A DNA stretch of 64,000 bases, taken from the sequence record PV577657. One strand, written 5' to 3'. The translations under genes were made by a program, and so were the position numbers. Of this stretch, positions 638-41,288 are shown one piece after another (within the stretch, counting starts at the first letter, position 1; each line of letters starts with the position of its first letter). The notes beneath the pieces were generated by a model. It was not told the DNA's origin. It saw only the letters and a list, made by a program, of their open reading frames with translations, and did not search any database. This DNA is from Escherichia phage vB_EcoS_MM-1.

Positions 638-728
638 TGGTGTTGGATGATGGAGTCGAACCACCCGAGACCCTTCCGAGTCGGCAGATTTACAGTCTGC
701 TTCGCTACCTCTACGATACTAATCCAAC
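638..728 (-). tRNA. tRNA-Tyr (anticodon GUA), long variable arm
   Basis: Acceptor GTTGGAT/ATCCAAC, anticodon arm GCAGA-CUGUAAA-UCUGC (same as the E. coli tRNA-Tyr anticodon arm as I recall it), 88 nt class II, encoded CCA. Confidence 0.7.
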
Positions 729-856: not shown

Positions 857-1132
857 TTAGTCGAACTTAGGAGCGACAGTTAAGGAGAATGGAAGTTCGA
901 AAACTTCTTCGCCCTCATCACTAACAGTAATTACACGACCTTTAAGTTCAGACATTGAAATATCAATATCAGCTTTTGCATCTGGAGCCATGCCAGCTTC
1001 AATACATTTAGCTTTAACTTCCGGCAGAAGTTCTACATCGTAGAAATAAAGCCATTCAATCTCACCTTCCCAGCCTTCCCAGGATTTACAGATTGCACTT
1101 TCAATACCAGTTGCTATAACACGATTTTGCAT
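857..1132 (-). CDS. hypothetical early protein
   Basis: 91-aa ORF with AAGGAG RBS and upstream T5-type promoter. Confidence 0.65.
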   Translation of the reverse strand: MQNRVIATGIESAICKSWEGWEGEIEWLYFYDVELLPEVKAKCIEAGMAPDAKADIDISMSELKGRVITVSDEGEEVFELPFSLTVAPKFD

Positions 1133-1222: not shown

Positions 1223-1429
1223 CTAAACTCCAGATTCTTCAGCTAAGTCTAGGCTAATAAGAGATATAGCCATAATTGCTGCTCCGTGTTCTCTTTCTCC
1301 TGTCTCTTTAGCTAGGGTTATAATATCAAGAAATTGCTTATGAAAGTCTGCAACCTCTTGAGTCATACCTGCCTCAGCAATCATGCCTTTAAGCATGAAA
1401 CGTTGTGCGGTAATTTCGGGATTAGCCAT
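1223..1429 (-). CDS. hypothetical protein
   Basis: 68-aa ORF, GGAGAAA RBS. Confidence 0.6.
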   Translation of the reverse strand: MANPEITAQRFMLKGMIAEAGMTQEVADFHKQFLDIITLAKETGEREHGAAIMAISLISLDLAEESGV

Positions 1430-1589
1430 GTTGTTTCTCCAGTTTCATGTTTAATAGTCTACAAATAAAATCAATGTCTTCATCTGTGCCTAGATCTCTA
1501 TCTTCAAGAGTTGCCTTGAAGTTTTTCGTCAATTCCATGAGGATAACTTCTCTAGAACGACGTGTTGGCGGAGGTGGATGTCTATACAT
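1422..1589 (-). CDS. small hypothetical protein (55 aa, PPPP motif)
   Basis: Hand-translated ORF MYRHPPPPTRRS... with AAGGA RBS; stop overlaps next start (ATGGCTAA); below ORF-track cutoff. Confidence 0.35.
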   Translation of the reverse strand: MYRHPPPPTRRSREVILMELTKNFKATLEDRDLGTDEDIDFICRLLNMKLEKQHG

Positions 1590-1968: not shown

Positions 1969-2186
1969 ATAGTCTCCTTAGTCAATTACTTTTGAGGCTT
2001 CAAGGGAGTCGATATAGTATACGTTTTCTACCATAATCATATAATCTGCCACTTTATCCATAGCTTGGGCCTCAGAGGTAGCTCTGGCTAACCTATATCC
2101 TTTTTTATATTCATCCGGGTATTCTCTATCTTGAATAAATACAACATAAACTATGTATAATTCCACTTGTAATCCCCTAATTAAGT

Positions 2187-2264
2187 TGGTGGCTCCCCGA
2201 GGATTCGAACCTACGTACCTTCCGGTTATGAGCCGGGTGCTCATACCATATGAGCTTGAGAACC
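2187..2264 (-). tRNA. tRNA with CAU anticodon (Met or Ile2)
   Basis: D-arm GCTC-ATATGGTAT-GAGC, anticodon arm CCGG-CUCAUAA-CCGG, T-loop TTCGAAT, acceptor with two G-U pairs, encoded CCA. Confidence 0.6.
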
Positions 2265-2270
2265 AGAATT

Positions 2271-2359
2271 TGGCGGAAGAAGTGGGAATCGAACCCACAA
2301 GGCTATATTTCAAACCGACAGATTAGCAATCTGCTGCAATACCGTTATGCTATTCTTCC
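2271..2359 (-). tRNA. tRNA-Ser (anticodon GCU), class II
   Basis: Acceptor GGAAGAA/TTCTTCC, anticodon arm GCAGA-UUGCUAA-UCUGU, long variable arm, T-arm GTGGG/TTCGATT/CCCAC. Confidence 0.6.
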
Positions 2360-2380
2360 GAATTTATAAGATATATTATA

Positions 2381-2902
2381 TTAGAAATTTAGCTTCATAG
2401 CAAGAAAATTTTTCAAGTTTTCGGTAGACATCTCATCCACATCTACGGGAGAAACAAAGCCGTTTAATTTTCTAGCAAATTTTTCACCCGCAGGATCGTT
2501 GTCTCCGACAGCTACCAATTTAAAAGGTAATAATTTCAGTTGCTTTAATAACGCTTTTCCTGGAGAAGAACCTAACATTGCCAGGGCTGGATAACCAGCG
2601 TTATGTAGCGCAACTGCCTTAAATACAGATTCAGCGATCAATACTACTTTTTCATCTCCATTGAGAGTTTCTAGTCCCCATACACACTGGGTAGTAGAAT
2701 AAGTAAAATATTTAGCTTCAAAGGGACACTTACCATGACCTTTTGGAGCAGAAGGATTATACGTCTGATAGCCTCGCAACATCCCGGAGAAGTCATACAA
2801 CGGGACTGTTAGCCATCCTTCCGGACTTAACCAGCAATGATATTTATCTGTATCAAATCCTCTGGATAAGAGGTGCTGTGTTAGCTCATCAACATTCATA
2901 TT
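2381..2902 (-). CDS. Toprim-domain protein (stand-alone primase-like/nuclease-like fold)
   Basis: Conserved Glu (IAES) and GDNDPAG DxD motif; likely start MNVDELTQ after GAGAGGAA RBS. Confidence 0.6.
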   Translation of the reverse strand, partial: NMNVDELTQHLLSRGFDTDKYHCWLSPEGWLTVPLYDFSGMLRGYQTYNPSAPKGHGKCPFEAKYFTYSTTQCVWGLETLNGDEKVVLIAESVFKAVALHNAGYPALAMLGSSPGKALLKQLKLLPFKLVAVGDNDPAGEKFARKLNGFVSPVDVDEMSTENLKNFLAMKLNF

Positions 2903-2904
2903 TG

Positions 2905-2990
2905 GTTCCTCTCTCAAATTTATAGATATATTATACAGAGAATTTAGCATTCAAGCAATCAAATTTTTTAACTTTTTAGAGGAAAATCAT
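2905..2990 (-). promoter_or_regulatory. T5-type early promoter
   Basis: Minus-strand TTGCTT -17- TATAAT, then conserved ATCTATAAATTTGAGAGAGGAA. Confidence 0.6.
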
Positions 2991-5969: not shown

Positions 5970-6472
5970 TTTAAGTATTTTTAAGAACTCTCGTAAAAAC
6001 TCTTAAAAATACAGACGATACCGGGAGAGTCATAAGTCTCACTCATTAAGTATTTCAAGACAAAATACAGTAACGTCTATTATTTTCCAGTTTAAGTCAG
6101 GGTGACTTAGTGGTTATGTCCTGCGGTATATTGAGGACTCGGTTAGGCTTGGGGTCATGACTTCCCACCTTTTGCTGCTACTCAACAGGAGTTATCGCGA
6201 ATTACCTGTGCTATTGTGCACCATTAGTGACATCTCTCATGTCAGCATTTCCCACTTTGTGGATAGCTTGAAAAACTACTCCGATATGGAGAAAGAACTT
6301 CACTATCCTAGAATACCTTCTAAAGTTCTTCTTTAGCCTGGACATAGTTAAATCGTAATAAAACTATTCAGCAGACTGGTTGGTTAGTCTGGAACCAACT
6401 ACCGCGTGGTTTAGGCAGTGCGCAACTAACCTCGGAAGCTTTTATGTTAAAAGCATCAGTTATCCAGTTCTT

Positions 6473-6545
6473 ACCGACCGTAGGATTCGAACCTACATCT
6501 TCCACCAGTTACGGCTTGATAATACCAATTATACTAGGACGGCAG
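6473..6545 (-). tRNA. tRNA-like element (perfect T-arm, no clean anticodon arm)
   Basis: GTAGG/TTCGAAT/CCTAC T-arm with partial acceptor pairing; possibly degenerate. Confidence 0.35.
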
Positions 6546-32095: not shown

Positions 32096-33067
32096 ATGAC
32101 CAATGTAAAAGACTTTATTAAACGCTGTCAAGAAGCATATTATCAAGGTATGTCTTTAATCTCTGACGAAGAATATGATCGTCTGATTAAAAGATTTCCG
32201 TTAGAAGAAGAGATCGGGCCTAAGGGCGATATTCCACATCTGTATCGTATGTATTCTTTACAGAAAGTTTATTATAATCGTGGAGATAAACCCCCGTTTA
32301 ACCCATTAGGTCAGGTAGAAACTGATAAGTTAGATGGTTGTGCAATTTCTCTGTTATATATTAATGGCGAATTTGTTCAAGCACTAACTCGTGGTAACGG
32401 TATTCTAGGGAATGATGTCACAAGCAACGTAAGATTGCTGAACATCCCTAAAAAGATTTCCCAAAAAGTACCTACTCAAATCACTGGTGAAGTTCTAATT
32501 ACAAAAGAAGTAGAAAATAAACGTAACTTTGCCTCTGGTGCTATTAACCTCAAAGATAGTGATGATTTTGTACAACGTATCGGAGAAGGTGGTTTAATCT
32601 TCGTTGCATATGGTATCCAGTGTTCTGCTGAATCTGTAGGTATTACAGAAGCATATTTAAAAGATATGCTTTGGCTGGAGAATGAGAACTTCTTAACAGT
32701 TGTTAATGTGCGTTCTTTCTTTAAATGGATTCCGACGGACGGTAAAGTTGTTCGTATTAATGATAACAACAAATTCTTCCGTGAAGGCTGGACTAATAAA
32801 TTCCCTCGTGGAGCATTCGCTATTAAAGAGGATGAAGAAGGCGAGATTACAACTCTTACTAAAGTTGAATGGCAGGTAGGAGCTTCTGGTAAAGTAACTC
32901 CAGTTGGTTATTTCGAACCGGTAATTATTGATGATGCTACAATTGTTAAAGCGACTCTTAATAACGTTGATTATATTAACTCTCTTGATCTAGAGATCGG
33001 TTGCCAGATTCGAGTGATTCGTGCTGGTGGTGTAATCCCGTGCATAGTAGAGCGAGTATATGATTAA
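32096..33067 (+). CDS. NAD-dependent DNA ligase, N-terminal fragment (adenylation + OB domains)
   Basis: KxDG adenylation motif (DKLDGCAISLLY); ends after OB-fold region; 323 aa. Confidence 0.85.
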   Translation: MTNVKDFIKRCQEAYYQGMSLISDEEYDRLIKRFPLEEEIGPKGDIPHLYRMYSLQKVYYNRGDKPPFNPLGQVETDKLDGCAISLLYINGEFVQALTRGNGILGNDVTSNVRLLNIPKKISQKVPTQITGEVLITKEVENKRNFASGAINLKDSDDFVQRIGEGGLIFVAYGIQCSAESVGITEAYLKDMLWLENENFLTVVNVRSFFKWIPTDGKVVRINDNNKFFREGWTNKFPRGAFAIKEDEEGEITTLTKVEWQVGASGKVTPVGYFEPVIIDDATIVKATLNNVDYINSLDLEIGCQIRVIRAGGVIPCIVERVYD

Positions 33068-33266: not shown

Positions 33267-34049
33267 TTGATGAAAATCGAAATTCCAACACAATGTCCCT
33301 CTTGTGGTTCTAAGCTAGATCTTGTCAACGGACAATTATTTTGTCGGAATAAGTCCAACTGTCCAGCGCAATCAAGTAAGTTAATTGAGAACTTCTGTAC
33401 AAAAATGAAGTTAAAGGGCTTTGGTCCAAAAACTATTGAAAAGCTGGAGCTGACGAAGATCTCAGAACTATTTTACCTAACCGAAGAAGATTTGGTTAGA
33501 GCCGTGGGTAGCAAGGTTGCCGCTAAGTTAATTAGCGAATTAAATACTAAAGTTCGCGGAGACATTGACTTTGGTTCAGTTCTCGGTTCTTTAGGAATCC
33601 CTCTAATTGGAGAGGTTGCAGCAAAGAAATTATCCCAAAATTGCACTAGCTTCCACGATGTGAAGGCTGACGGCAAGGCTGGAGAAAACTACAAAGCCTG
33701 GCTAAATTCCCCGCAAGGCAAGGATGTTATCGAACTACCGTGGAAATTCTCAACTGGTATTAAGGGCACTAAAGCTGACGTCATCATTACAGATGAATTA
33801 GTTGCCCAGCCAAATGGAATCGCGGTATGTATTACCGGATCTTTGCAAGATTTTGCAAATCGAACGGATGCAACAAACTATTTAGAAAGTCTAGGGTATA
33901 CGGTTAAGAAATCCGTTACCAAAGACGTAAAATACCTGATCTGTGAGGATGAATCAAAACGTTCTTCCTCATCTTATAAGAAAGCCGAAACGAATGGGAT
34001 AGAAATCCTGTCGATTAAAGAACTATTGGAGAAAAATAATAATGTCTAA
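33267..34049 (+). CDS. NAD-dependent DNA ligase, C-terminal fragment (Zn-finger, HhH, BRCT)
   Basis: Starts at LigA-type Zn finger CPSCGS...C..C; HhH-like GIPLIGEVAAKKL; 260 aa. Confidence 0.85.
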   Translation: MMKIEIPTQCPSCGSKLDLVNGQLFCRNKSNCPAQSSKLIENFCTKMKLKGFGPKTIEKLELTKISELFYLTEEDLVRAVGSKVAAKLISELNTKVRGDIDFGSVLGSLGIPLIGEVAAKKLSQNCTSFHDVKADGKAGENYKAWLNSPQGKDVIELPWKFSTGIKGTKADVIITDELVAQPNGIAVCITGSLQDFANRTDATNYLESLGYTVKKSVTKDVKYLICEDESKRSSSSYKKAETNGIEILSIKELLEKNNNV

Positions 34050-34825: not shown

Positions 34826-34860
34826 TAAGGGGAGGGGGCTATGCTCCTTCCCCTTTTTGC
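34826..34860 (+). terminator. rho-independent terminator
   Basis: AAGGGGAGGGGG...CTCCTTCCCCTT hairpin + TTTT. Confidence 0.65.
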
Positions 34861-34891
34861 ATTTAGAAGGCACGAAAGCGTGCAAAGGAGA

Positions 34892-36364
34892 ATGACCTTG
34901 TTTAACGTGCAAGCTGTAGTGTTGAAGATGCTTCTAGCTTCTGAACAGAAGCAAATAGCATTGGAAACATTCTCAAAACTGCATAAAGATCATTTTAATG
35001 ACGCTTTCTCCTCAATTTACCAAGCCGTCCAGAATTATTATAAAAAATATAACACAATGCCGTCCATTGACGCACTGATGCTTGAGGCTAATAGGAACGC
35101 CCGCCTTTCTCAAGCTCTAGTCGTTTTAGCTAACACTCAAATTCCAGAAGTGAGCATGGAACAGGCACTTGAAGTCCTAGAGGCCGAATATACACAGGAT
35201 TTATTCCTAAAGCTTCTAGAAACAGACGTGCTTCAAGATTTAACAATGCTGGATCAGGGAGAAATTCTCAACCGAGTTGCCTCCCTTCACTTAAAATTAG
35301 AAGAGAAAGTAACGAATACTGGAAAAGTATTCAACGCAGATAACATGCGTATTTTCCAGAGAGAAGAAGATACCAAACTGAACCTAATCGCTCTTGGTAT
35401 TTGTAATGAGTTCGACGCTCAAATTGGTTTAGCTCGCACAGAAACGTTACTGCTTGGTGGTTGGCGTGGTACTGGTAAATCCATTATCTGTTCAAACATA
35501 CAGGTTCAGCAATATTTGAATGGAGATATTGCTCCATACTTCTCAATTGAGATGAAAGAACATGAAGTATTTAGACGTAATCTAGCCATGCTAGCTGGTG
35601 TATCAGCACTAGCAATGCGTAATAATACTCTAGAAGGTGCAGCTCTGTTGAGACTAGCCAGAACTAGAGCTAGGATGTTCAACGGTGGTGAAGAGCTTTT
35701 CGATAACTTCGTTAAACAGTATACAATGGCTAAGATGAGTGATTTCTACGATATGGAGAGTAAGCTAATAGAAGGGTATGAGCTACATACTCCTATGATT
35801 ATTGTTTATGACCCTGAGTTGTCTATTACAACAGTTGACGTAGAATTAAATAAATTAGTTGCTAGATATGGTGATAAAGTTACAGTAGCTCTACTTGACT
35901 ATATTAACCAAACCCGACTTCCAGACTCTAAAACCATTGATATGTATGACTGGAAAGAACAGATGGTTGTTAGCTCGTCTTTCAAATCTATCTGCCAGAA
36001 ACATAACGTGGCTGGCGTAGCTCCTTACCAGATCGATCAAGACGGTAGAACACGTATGTCAAAGGGGATTCTTGATTCCGCAGACATGGCTGCTAATCTT
36101 AATGCTGCAAAAGCTGATAATGGTCAAGGTGCTATTATGTTTGACTTCGTTAAGACTCGTTCTTCTGATAGCGTGAAGTTTATGCCTAAAATGAACTGGG
36201 AAACTCTGCGAATGGATAACACTACCAACCTAGCAATGGAAGATATATCTCAAATGGAAGCTGAGTTCGTTATCCCTATTGAGAAGGATAAGCCGGCTCA
36301 ACCTAAACGTGCTAAGAAAGACAAAGCTGAAAATTCAACAGGTGAACAGGCCAGCGATATATGA
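34892..36364 (+). CDS. replicative helicase (DnaB/RecA-fold ATPase-like)
   Basis: Walker A GGWRGTGKS; start at MTLFNV after AAAGGAG (ORF-track 34841 overlaps terminator). Confidence 0.65.
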   Translation: MTLFNVQAVVLKMLLASEQKQIALETFSKLHKDHFNDAFSSIYQAVQNYYKKYNTMPSIDALMLEANRNARLSQALVVLANTQIPEVSMEQALEVLEAEYTQDLFLKLLETDVLQDLTMLDQGEILNRVASLHLKLEEKVTNTGKVFNADNMRIFQREEDTKLNLIALGICNEFDAQIGLARTETLLLGGWRGTGKSIICSNIQVQQYLNGDIAPYFSIEMKEHEVFRRNLAMLAGVSALAMRNNTLEGAALLRLARTRARMFNGGEELFDNFVKQYTMAKMSDFYDMESKLIEGYELHTPMIIVYDPELSITTVDVELNKLVARYGDKVTVALLDYINQTRLPDSKTIDMYDWKEQMVVSSSFKSICQKHNVAGVAPYQIDQDGRTRMSKGILDSADMAANLNAAKADNGQGAIMFDFVKTRSSDSVKFMPKMNWETLRMDNTTNLAMEDISQMEAEFVIPIEKDKPAQPKRAKKDKAENSTGEQASDI

Positions 36365-36894
36365 TAACACAGGAAAGGCTAAAAGAGTTATTTGATTACT
36401 CCCCAGGAACTGGGGAGTTTACTAGAAAAGTATCTAGAGGTAATCAGAAAGCTGGTAGTATAGCTGGTTCTTTAAGAAAAGATGATTATATATGTATATG
36501 GGTAGATGGAAAGCCTTACTATGCGCATCAACTAGCTTTTCTCTATATGGAAGGTTATTTACCTGAAGAAGTAGACCATATAAACCGTATACGAAGTGAT
36601 AATCGTTGGGTTAACCTTAAAGATTCTTCTCACCAAGAGAATAGCAGGAATAAAGCAGCTAAAAGTAAATCAGGGTATATAGGAGTTAGTTGGAATAAAC
36701 AAAGGCAAAAATGGCAAGTTCAACTAAGAGATACCAATAAAAAGAAAATATTCGGTGGATATTTTGAGTACCAGAATTTAGAATCAGCAGTAGATAAGAT
36801 TAATAATCTACGATTACAATTTCATGGGGAAAATGCTATTCAAGAAATATTCGACCCGTCTAATTATCCTGCATTAGAGGAGATAAATTCATGA
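36361..36894 (+). CDS. HNH homing endonuclease
   Basis: VDHINRIRSDNRWVNL HNH motif; overlaps helicase stop and primase start. Confidence 0.8.
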   Translation: MITQERLKELFDYSPGTGEFTRKVSRGNQKAGSIAGSLRKDDYICIWVDGKPYYAHQLAFLYMEGYLPEEVDHINRIRSDNRWVNLKDSSHQENSRNKAAKSKSGYIGVSWNKQRQKWQVQLRDTNKKKIFGGYFEYQNLESAVDKINNLRLQFHGENAIQEIFDPSNYPALEEINS

Positions 36895-37781
36895 GTAGAA
36901 TAACAGAATTACTTGATCTTAAGGGAATTGAGTATAAAGATACTGGTGGAGATATTTTAATCTGTTGCTTAAATCCATATCATGATGATAAACACCCAAG
37001 TTTGCGTATTGATCCTGAAACCGGGATTATGCACTGCTTGAGTTGCGGTTTTGGCAAAGGTATACCTAGTATTTATCATTATTTTAATGAGACTCAATAT
37101 AGACAATCTCCAAGACTATCCCAAGTACGTAAAAAGATTTCAGAGATTAGAAATGGATCTACGAATCTTGCAATCCCAGAATCTGCCTGCCTTTTCGAAG
37201 GTGATTTCCGAGGTATAAGTTCTAAGACCTTGAAGAAATATTTTGCTTTCCAACACCAAGAGAACTGGGAAGGCAGAATTGTATTCCCAATCACAGATGC
37301 TGTTGGACGCAATATCCTATTTTTGGGTCGTTCTATAAACAGTTCTGCCCCTCCTAAATACTTAGTAAAACCAAAACAGGTTTCACCACCAATTTTCCCT
37401 GTACGATATAATACTCCAGTTCTTATTCTAGTTGAAGGTATCTTTGATATGCTGAACCTAGAGGATAGTGGTATAGACTATGCTTCTTGCTGCTTTGGTA
37501 CACATCAGTTTACTTCAGACAACATTGCAGATAAGTTCAGTCCGTACATTATTGCTGGTGTTAAAGTTGTTGTTATCTTACTAGATAATGATGCTTCTGG
37601 TAATAAAGCTGCACAAGCACTGGCCAAGCTAATTCGTACAAAAACGCGTTTAACACCTGTAGTTGCTAACTTTCTTCTGCCTGAAGGTAAAGACCCAGGT
37701 GACTTAAATAAAGAAGAAATTGATATGTTAGCAAAACGTATTGAAATTTTAGTTGCTGAATCGCTTAAAGATTTGGTATAA
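36891..37781 (+). CDS. DnaG-type DNA primase (CHC2 Zn finger + Toprim)
   Basis: C-x2-H...C-x2-C zinc finger; Toprim EGIFD and LLDNDASG. Confidence 0.85.
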   Translation: MSRITELLDLKGIEYKDTGGDILICCLNPYHDDKHPSLRIDPETGIMHCLSCGFGKGIPSIYHYFNETQYRQSPRLSQVRKKISEIRNGSTNLAIPESACLFEGDFRGISSKTLKKYFAFQHQENWEGRIVFPITDAVGRNILFLGRSINSSAPPKYLVKPKQVSPPIFPVRYNTPVLILVEGIFDMLNLEDSGIDYASCCFGTHQFTSDNIADKFSPYIIAGVKVVVILLDNDASGNKAAQALAKLIRTKTRLTPVVANFLLPEGKDPGDLNKEEIDMLAKRIEILVAESLKDLV

Positions 37782-38230: not shown

Positions 38231-40798
38231 TTGAAAATCGCAGTAGTTGATAAAGCTCTAAATAACACTCGTTACGATAAACATTTCCAGCTATATGGCG
38301 AGGAAGTTGATGTATTTCATATGTGTAACGAGAAGTTATCTGGTCGTTTGCTTAAAAAGCACATTACTATTGGAACACCAGAAAACCCATTTGATCCGAA
38401 TGATTACGATTTTGTTATACTAGTAGGTGCTGAACCTTTCCTGTATTTCGCAGGTAAGAAAGGCATTGGTGACTATACTGGTAAACGTGTAGAGTATAAT
38501 GGATATGCTAACTGGATTGCGAGTATCAGCCCAGCCCAGTTACACTTTAAACCTGAAATGAAACCAGTTTTCGATGCAACAGTAGAAAATATCCACGATA
38601 TTATCAATGGTCGTGAGAAGGTTGCAAAAGCTGGTGATTACCGTCCTATTACTGACCCTGACGAGGCGGAAGAATATATCAAGATGGTGTATAATATGGT
38701 TATCGGACCTGTCGCATTCGACTCCGAAACCTCAGCACTATACTGTCGAGATGGTTATCTGCTTGGTGTTTCTATGTCTCACCAAGAGTATCAGGGTGTA
38801 TATATCGATTCTGATTGTCTCACCGAGGTTGCAGTATATTATCTCCAGAAAATTCTGGATAGTGAAAACCACACTATTGTTTTTCACAACCTGAAGTTTG
38901 ATATGCACTTTTATAAGTACCATCTGGGACTTACTTTTGATAAAGCGCATAAAGAACGCAGGCTCCATGATACTATGTTGCAGCATTATGTTCTAGATGA
39001 ACGTCGTGGTACTCATGGCTTGAAATCTCTAGCAATGAAGTATACCGATATGGGTGACTATGACTTCGAACTAGATAAGTTCAAAGAGGATTACTGCAAA
39101 GCACATAAAATCAAGAAAGAAGATTTCACCTATGATTTAATTCCGTTTGATATTATGTGGCCTTACGCTGCGAAAGATACCGATGCTACCATACGTTTGC
39201 ACAACTTCTTCTTACCAAAAATTGAGAAGAATGAAAAACTTTGTAGTCTGTATTATGATGTCCTAATGCCTGGTTGTGTATTTCTCCAGCGTGTTGAGGA
39301 TCGTGGTGTACCTATTTCTATTGATCGTTTAAAAGAAGCTCAGTACCAGTTAACCCATAATCTGAATAAAGCTCGTGAAAAACTGTATACTTATCCAGAA
39401 GTCGTTCAGCTAGAGAAAGATCAGAACGAAGCGTTTAACCCAAACTCTGTTAAACAACTCCGTGTTCTTCTGTTTGATTATGTTGGCTTAACTCCAACAG
39501 GTAAATTGACGGATACTGGAGCAGATTCTACAGATGCAGAAGCTCTGAACGAATTGTCTACGCAGCATCCAATTGCTAAGACTCTACTAGAGATTCGTAA
39601 GCTAACTAAGCTGATCTCTACTTATGTTGAGAAGATTCTTCTGAGTATTGATGCAGATGGTTGCATTCGTACTGGTTTCCACGAACATATGACTACTTCT
39701 GGTCGTCTGAGTTCTTCCGGTAAACTGAACTTGCAACAGTTACCTCGTGATGAATCTATTATCAAGGGTTGTGTAGTAGCTCCTCCTGGGTATCGTGTAA
39801 TCGCATGGGACTTAACAACTGCGGAAGTTTATTATGCTGCTGTTCTATCTGGTGATAGAAATATGCAACAAGTATTTATCAACATGAGAAATGAACCAGA
39901 TAAATACCCCGACTTCCACTCTAACATCGCACACATGGTATTTAAGCTCCAATGCGAGCCTCGTGATGTTAAAAAGTTATTCCCAGCTCTGCGTCAAGCA
40001 GCTAAAGCAATCACCTTTGGTATTCTGTATGGTTCTGGCCCAGCTAAAGTAGCTCATTCTGTTAACGAAGCTCTTCTGGAACAGGCTGCTAAGACAGGCG
40101 AACCGTTTGTAGAGTGTACGGTTGCAGATGCTAAAGAGTATATAGAAACTTACTTCGGTCAGTTCCCGCAGCTTAAGCGTTGGATTGATAAGTGCCATGA
40201 TCAGATCAAGAATCATGGATTTATCTATAGTCACTTTGGTCGTAAACGTCGTCTGCATAATATCCACTCCGAAGACCGTGGTGTTCAAGGTGAAGAAATC
40301 CGTTCTGGATTTAACGCAATCATTCAGTCTGCTTCTTCTGATAGTCTCCTTTTAGGTGCTGTAGATGCAGATAATGAGATCATTTCTCTTGGCCTAGAAC
40401 AAGAGATGAAGATTGTTATGCTGGTTCACGACTCCGTAGTTGCTATTGTTCGTGAGGATTTGATCGACCAATACAATGAAATCCTAATTCGTAATATTCA
40501 GAAAGACCGCGGTATTAGTATTCCTGGCTGTCCGATTGGTATTGATTCAGATTCTGAAGCTGGAGGTTCTCGCGACTACTCTTGTGGTAAGATGAAGAAA
40601 CAGCACCCATCAATCGCTTGTATTGATGATGATGAATATACTCGTTATGTCAAGGGTGTATTACTTGATGCAGAATTCGAGTATAAGAAACTAGCTGCAA
40701 TGGATAAAGAGCATCCAGATCATAGCAAATACAAGGATGATAAGTTTATTGCTGTATGTAAAGATTTGGATAACGTGAGAAGGATTCTCGGTGCTTGA
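38231..40798 (+). CDS. family A DNA polymerase with 3'-5' exonuclease domain
   Basis: TTG start after AAGAGGAGA; exo and Pol A motifs; 855 aa, matching my recollection of T5 DNA polymerase. Confidence 0.9.
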   Translation: MKIAVVDKALNNTRYDKHFQLYGEEVDVFHMCNEKLSGRLLKKHITIGTPENPFDPNDYDFVILVGAEPFLYFAGKKGIGDYTGKRVEYNGYANWIASISPAQLHFKPEMKPVFDATVENIHDIINGREKVAKAGDYRPITDPDEAEEYIKMVYNMVIGPVAFDSETSALYCRDGYLLGVSMSHQEYQGVYIDSDCLTEVAVYYLQKILDSENHTIVFHNLKFDMHFYKYHLGLTFDKAHKERRLHDTMLQHYVLDERRGTHGLKSLAMKYTDMGDYDFELDKFKEDYCKAHKIKKEDFTYDLIPFDIMWPYAAKDTDATIRLHNFFLPKIEKNEKLCSLYYDVLMPGCVFLQRVEDRGVPISIDRLKEAQYQLTHNLNKAREKLYTYPEVVQLEKDQNEAFNPNSVKQLRVLLFDYVGLTPTGKLTDTGADSTDAEALNELSTQHPIAKTLLEIRKLTKLISTYVEKILLSIDADGCIRTGFHEHMTTSGRLSSSGKLNLQQLPRDESIIKGCVVAPPGYRVIAWDLTTAEVYYAAVLSGDRNMQQVFINMRNEPDKYPDFHSNIAHMVFKLQCEPRDVKKLFPALRQAAKAITFGILYGSGPAKVAHSVNEALLEQAAKTGEPFVECTVADAKEYIETYFGQFPQLKRWIDKCHDQIKNHGFIYSHFGRKRRLHNIHSEDRGVQGEEIRSGFNAIIQSASSDSLLLGAVDADNEIISLGLEQEMKIVMLVHDSVVAIVREDLIDQYNEILIRNIQKDRGISIPGCPIGIDSDSEAGGSRDYSCGKMKKQHPSIACIDDDEYTRYVKGVLLDAEFEYKKLAAMDKEHPDHSKYKDDKFIAVCKDLDNVRRILGA

Positions 40799-41288
40799 TT
40801 TCAAATTGCCCGTATATGCTTTACGGGCTTTTGTATCAATTGAGCAAGAAGGTGATTATTCCGTAATTACAACAAGATATAATAAATATGTACTAGATAA
40901 CAGGAAGTTGCCTGGCACTTTTTCTCAACGTAGGCTTATTCTATTTGAGAAACGGAAAGAATTACCATATAAGCTCTATCCTATTAGGGGCAGAATATCC
41001 ATGTTGTCTCAATTAGTTGGGTCAAAGCGTAGCCAATTTATAGATTCTGATGGAAATCTTATTAACTGGAAGAAAACTACGTTTTATGATGTTGTCACCT
41101 CTAAAGTTTTGCATTCAGCTAGAATTTACAACGGAAAATACCAATGCTATGTAGCTAAAGTTCCATATCCATTTGTATTATCCTATGTTCCAGCTTATAT
41201 AAGCTATATTCTGGTAAATAATAGCCCTGTTATTTACCAAGTCCATCAAGAGGAGCCTGAAATTCCTAGACTTAGAATAAAATTATGA
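40791..41288 (+). CDS. hypothetical protein
   Basis: 165-aa ORF between polymerase and helicase. Confidence 0.65.
   Translation: MLDFKLPVYALRAFVSIEQEGDYSVITTRYNKYVLDNRKLPGTFSQRRLILFEKRKELPYKLYPIRGRISMLSQLVGSKRSQFIDSDGNLINWKKTTFYDVVTSKVLHSARIYNGKYQCYVAKVPYPFVLSYVPAYISYILVNNSPVIYQVHQEEPEIPRLRIKL

Follow-up and report, generated by a model that had tools for sequence, protein, structure and literature searches.

What does a small Toprim-domain protein do beside the tRNA genes of a phage that also encodes a complete primase? The question is raised by a gene in a 64,000-nucleotide stretch of Escherichia phage vB_EcoS_MM-1 (sequence record PV577657; the whole stretch is called the window here), which an initial annotation, made from the letters alone, had read as a stand-alone Toprim protein and possibly an early nuclease directed at host or competitor nucleic acid. 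It is near certain that this gene is rad (retron anti-defence), known as ORF75 in phage SP15 and as T5.076 in phage T5. It has already been published as a counter-defence gene, and the locus is neither a new nuclease candidate nor a discovery. How its product, Rad, disables retrons is the part of the question to which the present analysis can add.

The identification is carried by sequence, synteny and mutant positions. The phage is a Tequintavirus: over its first 8 kb, the window matches Escherichia phage vB_EcoS_MM-2 at 100% identity and many Tequintaviruses at 97-99.9%. The encoded protein matches SP15 ORF75 (AP019559.1, E0157_075) at 188 of 189 residues and T5.076 (YP_006904.1) at 167 of 172 (97%); the one difference from SP15 is a conservative R/K exchange inside a probably untranslated 17-codon extension, and nothing functional is apparent in it. 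SP15 ORF75 is a 570-nucleotide gene directly upstream of tRNA-Ser and syntenic with the window gene, and the five residues at which ORF75 has been mutated (R13, P33, I88, D135 and E156) all stand at their exact positions in the 172-residue form of the window protein. T5.076 is annotated as "DNA primase" purely from its Toprim signature. No literature was found under the name T5.076 or for a Tequintavirus tRNA-region primase, and the link to Rad was given by the BF23 paper, which equates the T5 "Toprim primase" open reading frame (ORF) with Rad.

The published function of ORF75 is well described. It is the determinant of the evasion of Retron-Eco2 and Retron-Eco7 by T5-like phages (Nat Commun 2024, PMC11555353), and it lies in a region of about 8 kb in SP15 that can be deleted in viable mutants (Azam et al., 2023, 10.1101/2023.03.15.532788). 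The region with rad is deleted in the viable phages T5n, SP15m and BF23, region-deleted phages grow normally on naive hosts, and the tRNA-rich regions of these phages have been described as counter-defence islands. ORF75 rescues deletion mutants from retrons Ec67, Ec78 and Ec83, and lambda-vir from Ec48 and Se72 (10.1101/2023.03.15.532788). Expression of Rad has been reported to let T5-like phages, lambda-vir and engineered T7 escape several retrons. According to the same preprint (10.1101/2023.03.15.532788), Rad lowers the levels of msDNA (multicopy single-stranded DNA) as well as of msr-msd RNA, the retron non-coding RNA (ncRNA), and not those of the reverse transcriptase (RT) or effector transcripts; the substitutions R13E, P33T, I88T, D135H and E156H weaken the anti-retron activity of ORF75; and Rad activity is also seen with the T5 homologue and with that of Proteus phage Privateer. 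The Privateer protein is among the closest structural matches to Rad, at 44% identity, and a related Privateervirus homologue has the ESVFK motif in common with it. The idea of an early nuclease acting on host or competitor nucleic acid thus pointed in the right direction, towards counter-defence with lowered ncRNA and msDNA, for a gene that was already known.

The gene and its immediate 5' side comprise the following features:

2381..2899, minus strand: coding sequence of rad in its 172-residue form, equivalent to T5.076 and to residues 18-189 of SP15 ORF75.
2900..2950, minus strand: in-frame 17-codon 5' extension of rad, coding in some records (189-residue form).
2908..2915, minus strand: Shine-Dalgarno sequence GAGAGAGG, 8 nucleotides 5' of the ATG at 2899, read from the sequence.
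2930..2958, minus strand: sigma-70-type early promoter, TTGCTT (2958-2953)-N17-TATAAT (2935-2930), read from the sequence and corresponding to T5 promoter P15a.

Region 2381-2950 holds a single ORF, on the minus strand, with its stop codon at 2381-2383. The initial annotation left the strand unstated and placed a 173-residue protein at 2381-2902; the ORF is real, and its end was set 3 nucleotides too far, at a triplet (2900-2902, AAT) that encodes Asn and is no start codon. In-frame ATGs at 2950 and 2899 give products of 189 residues (as annotated in MM-2 and SP15) and 172 residues (as annotated in T5 and T5_ev212), respectively. The native product is likely the 172-residue form, as judged from promoter position, the T5 record, the relatives and the mutant numbering. 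The short start is favoured because the ATG at 2950-2948 sits within the promoter spacer, 5' of the transcript start expected near 2923, and the extension is probably not translated. It also finds no counterpart in the aligned Rad family members, the numbering of the preprint mutants matches the shorter form only (five out of five), and the T5 reference record gives T5.076 as a coding sequence of 172 residues with promoter P15a directly upstream. The P15a annotation corresponds to about 2904-2978 of the window, and an A/T-rich tract lies upstream of the promoter at 2930..2958; this promoter was missed by a consensus scan, its -35 hexamer fitting at 3/6 positions only.

The architecture of the protein was examined by domain, profile and structure comparison. 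Its putative metal-binding residues, in the numbering of the 172-residue form used throughout, are encoded as follows:

2630..2632, minus strand: codon of E90, the Toprim Glu, equivalent to E265 of Escherichia coli DnaG in a profile alignment to DnaG chains.
2618-2620, minus strand: codon of K94, at the position of DnaG D269.
2495..2503, minus strand: codons of D133-N134-D135, the DxD motif, equivalent to DnaG D309/D311 in the profile alignment.
2441..2443, minus strand: codon of D153, the motif VI Asp, whose aligned counterpart in the primase of the phage itself is the D of "GKDPGD".

The Toprim residues named in the initial annotation are thus in place, with GDNDPAG at 132-138 and E90 as the Toprim Glu, and the acidic set of DnaG (E265, D269, D309, D311 and the motif VI Asp) corresponds to E90, K94, D133, D135 and D153 of Rad. 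The absence of a zinc finger, helicase or ATPase partner was also borne out: Zn_ribbon_DnaG gives no match, the three Cys (22, 58, 72) form no CxxC, and no helicase or ATPase gene adjoins rad in the window. Pfam Toprim_2 matches at 24.9 bits against a gathering threshold of 22.1 (E 2.6e-5), and PHROG 849, "DNA primase", covers residues 16-184 of the 189-residue translation (E 1e-62). Against the phage's own primase, BLASTP aligns Rad weakly but colinearly across motifs II-VI. In NCBIfam, the matches were primase-like and all below threshold, and a single-sequence search of the PDB gave chance matches only, DnaG being reached by profile search.

An AlphaFold2 model built from 118 family sequences reached a mean predicted local distance difference test (pLDDT) score of 95.3 and a predicted template modelling (pTM) score of 0.90. 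In a fold search with this model, the best scores belong to primase-type structures, namely Aquifex DnaG (13.6), the RNA-polymerase domain of Bacillus subtilis DnaG (13.4), Twinkle (13.0) and the T7 gp4 primase fragment (13.0), each aligned over a length within 145-164 residues. RNase M5 and a small Toprim protein score about 10 over 87-89 residues, topoisomerase Toprim domains rank below these, and no OLD-family structure is among the significant matches. In a direct alignment, Rad begins where the RNA-polymerase domain of the phage's T5-type primase begins and, as in the model, ends one helix past the Toprim; its residues 1-80 make up the N-terminal subdomain of such a primase domain. Rad thus amounts to a DnaG/T7-type RNA-polymerase domain, minimal but complete, that has neither the zinc-binding nor the C-terminal domain. 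The description as a stand-alone Toprim is right as to the Toprim itself and incomplete otherwise, as the primase N-terminal subdomain is there too and DnaG and T7 gp4 match the fold over its whole length; and the OLD and RNase M5 families to which the initial annotation had looked for comparison gave no significant match and a partial one, respectively, to what is a DnaG/T7-type core and a relative of neither.

Rad belongs to a large family. A first word-indexed homologue search returned 6 proteins only, and exhaustive HMMER and profile searches were needed to recover it; the exhaustive HMMER search yields 441 clusters at 50% identity with E <= 1e-3, 245 of them with E <= 1e-10. Most relatives are stand-alone proteins of 160-200 residues, and the family is mostly unannotated or mislabelled as "DNA primase" in databases. 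Its mean column identity is about 34%. Among 121 members, G43, Y64 and G75 are invariant; E90 is kept in 120, R13 and K/R63 in 119 each, Y47 in 118, D135 in 116, D153 in 111 (it is invariant in a separate family alignment) and D133 in 108. At position 94, 67 members have D and 40 have K, the latter group including T5.076, reported as active, and the aligned Privateervirus and Kagunavirus homologues. That the acidic cluster is kept across so divergent a family favours an enzyme, and the conserved metal-binding set argues for catalysis rather than mere binding by this family.

Longer Rad-like proteins are fusions. Pfam identifies GNAT together with an Arr-like ADP-ribosyltransferase, a Mom-like domain, ParB-N and a DUF3268 zinc finger as partners. 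From motif reading, there also appear to be an HAD phosphatase, the head of a CCA-adding enzyme (P0098, which was outside the set of proteins scanned against Pfam) and a ligase-like KxDG motif (P0082). A separate observation on the multidomain proteins (P0066, P0074, P0082, P0095, P0103 and others) is that they carry at least one copy of NPxTGNxIxVxTALxY..HPA, usually near a terminus. The Toprim_2/3/4 domains have been described as catalytically active primase-type Toprims of mobile elements (Iyer et al., 2017).

The genomic contexts of the relatives are diverse, and across the loci viewed no partner gene, be it a helicase, an ATPase or another, consistently accompanies the Rad-like genes. In Kagunavirus, there is an overlap between the Rad-like gene and the end of a gene for an SNF2 helicase; in jumbo phages, it comes after a ClpX-HSP20-ClpS-ClpP cluster; at other loci, it stands beside UvrD, and one copy lies in a T4-type genome that also has gp45, gp44 and gp32. 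A tRNA gene was found within 10 kb of the Rad-like gene in 25 of 80 IMG/VR loci (L014-L093) and within 1 kb in 9, a census to be read as an observation and not as a statistic, as it has no background control for tRNA density. The remaining 55 loci have no tRNA in the flanks retrieved, which extended up to 10 kb and were in many cases shorter. In one lineage, an array of about 20 tRNAs surrounds the gene; CCA-adding enzymes lie at most 2.5 kb away in five loci, and RNA ligases within about 2 kb in three. Neighbourhoods with tRNA arrays, CCA-adding enzymes or RNA ligases occur in lineages unrelated to T5 (e.g., L004, L013, L018, L022 and L092). Because tRNA-rich regions are counter-defence islands and the census has no such control, this co-location is context and not proof of a tRNA substrate.

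With respect to replication, the complete DnaG-type primase that the initial annotation had located at 36891..37781 is indeed there, with Zn_ribbon_DnaG (CHC2), DNAG_N and Toprim domains, downstream of a DnaB-like helicase and upstream of the DNA polymerase. rad lies about 32 kb from this helicase-primase-polymerase module, and its product has no C-terminal helicase-interaction domain. Other phages with a Rad relative also have their own complete primase or a T4-type replisome. The PHROG 849 match, which aligns at positions 141-337 of the 435 in the profile, led us to consider whether rad is a split or fragmented primase, and this was rejected: no N-terminal fragment lies upstream, nearly all relatives are stand-alone and an intact primase is present. 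That the small Kagunavirus protein could be the sole primase of its phage was not supported either. In Kagunavirus NC_073324.1 (L006), a 753-residue protein encoded at 38894..41155 on the minus strand has an AAA_25 (RepA/DnaB-like) domain at 334-510 and an unassigned N-terminus of 330 residues, and may be a primase-helicase.

We consider it slightly better than an even chance that Rad is a dispensable early anti-retron protein whose zinc-finger-less primase core acts as a nuclease on retron nucleic acid, and this is our best explanation of the locus. The primase-like groove of Rad (R13, Y47, K63-Y64) would hold the retron ncRNA, or else the RNA-DNA product as it forms, the acidic cluster of E90, D133, D135 and D153 would cut the bound RNA or RNA-DNA, and functional RT-msDNA-effector complexes would then be neither made nor maintained. 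Toprim RNases have precedent in RNase M5 and AriB. Such a nuclease step is the likeliest mechanism for Rad, albeit unproven, and a number of points weigh against it. No in vitro nuclease assay of Rad is reported in the literature, and the peer-reviewed version of the work dropped the mechanism, stating that it could not be determined (PMC11555353). Single mutants, including the DxD mutant D135H, are only "slightly" less active (preprint figure legend), and the model is weakened because so mild an effect of D135H is not what strictly metal-dependent catalysis would give. ORF75 also fails to rescue T5 from the FORC 82 type I-A retron. Overall, Rad folds like a polymerase domain and unlike the known Toprim nucleases, RNase M5 matching over part of the length only, and the equivalent of DnaG D269 is a Lys in T5.076, which is reported as active, and in the other aligned homologues of the K94 clade. 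Finally, msDNA is the antitoxin in several retrons, and its destruction might trigger the toxin rather than silence it.

The alternatives, in order of likelihood, are a blocker, an enzyme of tRNA or structured RNA, a residual transferase and an auxiliary primase. The mild effect of D135H would fit a Rad that is a non-catalytic or stoichiometric inhibitor and whose primase-like groove binds msr-msd RNA, the branching-G priming site or the RT itself, a reading we regard as rather unlikely; R13, P33 and I88, which are far from the metal site, matter about as much as D135. On this reading, such binding would stop 2'-OH-primed reverse transcription and leave unprotected ncRNA to be degraded by host RNases; the fall of ncRNA and msDNA at unchanged RT mRNA fits a loss of RNA protection by the RT. 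Non-catalytic, zinc-finger-less DnaG-like domains do exist, such as the primase-like domain of metazoan Twinkle, which is a top fold match of Rad. The acidic cluster, near-invariant at the mean column identity given above, is however hard to explain without catalysis or metal-dependent binding. The same cluster would suit a primase-like nucleotidyl transferase that takes msDNA (single-stranded DNA) or ncRNA as its template or substrate, adds ribonucleotides and so corrupts the sensor nucleic acid of the retron, which we hold to be improbable. Toprim_2/3/4 are regarded as active primase Toprims (Iyer et al., 2017). The invariant K/R63-Y64 pair stands at the "KY" position of DnaG motif III, and the E/DxD/D set is kept. 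Against this, Rad is without the zinc-binding domain, which DnaG/T7-type primases (T7 gp4, DnaG) need for template-directed synthesis; the Lys in place of D269 in T5.076, reported as active, and in its aligned K94-clade homologues is a further difficulty, and loss of ncRNA and msDNA would not be expected from primer synthesis.

The genomic contexts raise the possibility, in our view a slim one, that the family serves primarily in the processing or repair of phage tRNA and structured RNA, with retron ncRNA as a collateral or secondary substrate. Relatives lie in or beside tRNA arrays in several non-T5 lineages (the 25 and 9 loci counted above), beside CCA-adding enzymes (with the CCA-adding-like fusion in P0098, by motif) and beside RNA ligases (with the ligase-like motif in P0082), and in T5 the gene comes first in a transcription unit that has tRNA genes further along. 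Co-location in a counter-defence island may however mean a shared purpose and not a shared substrate, most loci in the census show no tRNA in their flanks, the Kagunavirus, ClpP/ClpX and UvrD contexts have no link to tRNA, and region-deleted phages grow normally on naive hosts. A role as auxiliary catalytic subunit of the replication primase, taking its zinc finger in trans from the main primase, is largely excluded, and we give it very little probability. The "DNA primase" annotations of PHROG and the records, the colinearity with the phage's own primase over motifs II-VI and the overlap with the SNF2 helicase gene in Kagunavirus speak for it. rad is nevertheless dispensable, being deleted in T5n, SP15m and BF23, its position is remote from the replication module and its product has no helicase-binding domain; moreover, plasmid expression alone gives the anti-retron phenotype without the phage primase, and relatives co-occur with complete primases in unrelated phages. 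A wider, tentative and rather unlikely reading is that Rad is the founder of a phage family of zinc-finger-less, primase-derived enzymes acting on structured small nucleic acids (msr-msd/msDNA and tRNA-like RNAs), which would be bound in the primase-like groove and undergo cleavage or nucleotidyl transfer. If this were true, the tRNA-array, CCA and ligase contexts and the fusions to ADP-ribosyltransferase (ART), GNAT, Mom and ParB would form a modular, RNA-centred counter-defence toolkit of large virulent phages.

Downstream of rad, the window holds a second promoter and tRNA genes:

2375..2403, minus strand: second promoter, TTGCTA-N17-TATAAT (T5 P15b), overlapping the 3' end of rad, from the promoter scan and the T5 annotation.
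2271-2359, minus strand: tRNA-Ser(GCU), directly 3' of rad, from ARAGORN and the record annotation.
2190-2264, minus strand: tRNA(CAU), 3' of rad past tRNA-Ser, from the record annotation.

In the T5 annotation, rad is the head of the transcription unit that runs on into the tRNA genes, and the promoter at 2375..2403 leads into the downstream tRNA-Ser and tRNA-Met/Ile(CAU) genes. On its upstream side, rad faces a divergent operon. A nearly identical block of about 45 nucleotides (TTGCT..GCTAAATT..TATAATATATCT.ATAAATT) is found in both promoters (2355..2410 and 2916..2960, minus strand) and looks like a repeated T5 early-promoter cassette. ARAGORN missed two tRNA-like genes annotated in the record, tRNA-Met/Ile2(CAU) at 2190..2264 and "tRNA-OTHER" at 6472..6543, both on the minus strand. 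A mechanically called ORF at 1978..2313 overlaps the former; it is annotated as 1978..2244 in MM-2 or as the equivalent of 1978..2166 in T5_ev212, and is probably spurious past these ends.

Other genes of the same region have published counterparts in SP15. The tRNA-Tyr(GUA) gene at 638..728 (minus strand) is identical in sequence to the SP15 tRNA-Tyr, which cancels the depletion of tRNA-Tyr by PtuAB of Retron-Eco7 (Ec78) (PMC11555353). The genes at 857..1132, 1223..1429 and 1422..1589 (minus strand) are homologues of SP15 ORF71, ORF72 and ORF73, with 85/91 and 49/68 residues identical and a longer annotated N-terminus for ORF73 in the window. Two of these small ORFs together are reported to neutralise retron Ec83, the pair being given as ORF71+72 in the text and as ORF72+73 in the legend (10.1101/2023.03.15.532788).

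Two observations concern the surroundings of the replication module. A 177-residue ORF at 36361..36894 (plus strand) sits between the helicase (34841..36364) and the primase, overlapping each by 4 nucleotides, and by eye looks like an HNH/AP2-type homing endonuclease. Consecutive plus-strand ORFs at 32096..33067 and 33267..34049, about 200 nucleotides apart, resemble by eye the adenylation/OB and the zinc-finger/HhH/BRCT parts of an NAD-dependent DNA ligase. T5-like phages are annotated with a two-subunit ligase.

The window gene is thus a rediscovery of a published anti-retron gene and adds no new biology by itself. What the analysis adds is the conserved acidic set, the likely 172-residue start, the zinc-finger-less primase core and the large family, which together narrow the options for the mechanism. 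Residual interest lies in that mechanism, in the mis-annotation of the family as "DNA primase" and in the patterns of fusion and tRNA context; Rad could also serve as a broad off-switch for retrons in retron-based genome editing.

Compared with known systems, Rad has the RNA-polymerase domain fold in common with DnaG-type primases (E. coli, Aquifex and B. subtilis DnaG, 1NUI, T4 gp61 and Twinkle), whereas their CHC2 zinc-binding and C-terminal helicase-interaction domains are both absent from it. In size it comes to about half of the DnaG core; it has Lys for D269 and "GYQxY" for "GFGGR", and is dispensable for replication. RNase M5 and small Toprim proteins (6TG6, 6Z2B and 2I5R) match Rad over 87-105 residues, but RNase M5 has a C-terminal RNA-binding domain of its own, where Rad has the primase N-terminal subdomain and no known ribosomal-protein cofactor. 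The OLD-family and defence Toprims (P2 Old, GajA, AriB of PARIS and the Toprim of Retron-Eco2) offer the parallel of Toprim cleavage of nucleic acids, including tRNA and other RNA, in the conflict between phage and host. They are however defence effectors of hosts or prophages, and OLD, Gabija and PARIS work with ABC-ATPase sensors, whereas Rad serves the phage in counter-defence and has no ATPase, the N-terminal ABC-type ATPase domain of OLD being absent from it. The Toprim primase modules found in polyvalent proteins and on conjugative plasmids (TraC1, Sog) are of the Toprim_2 type, and relatives of Rad are likewise fused to ART, GNAT, Mom, ParB and zinc-finger domains. These polyvalent-protein primase modules were described from conjugative elements and never from phages (Iyer et al., 2017); unlike them, the Rad family is a phage family, and its T5 member is a single-domain protein.

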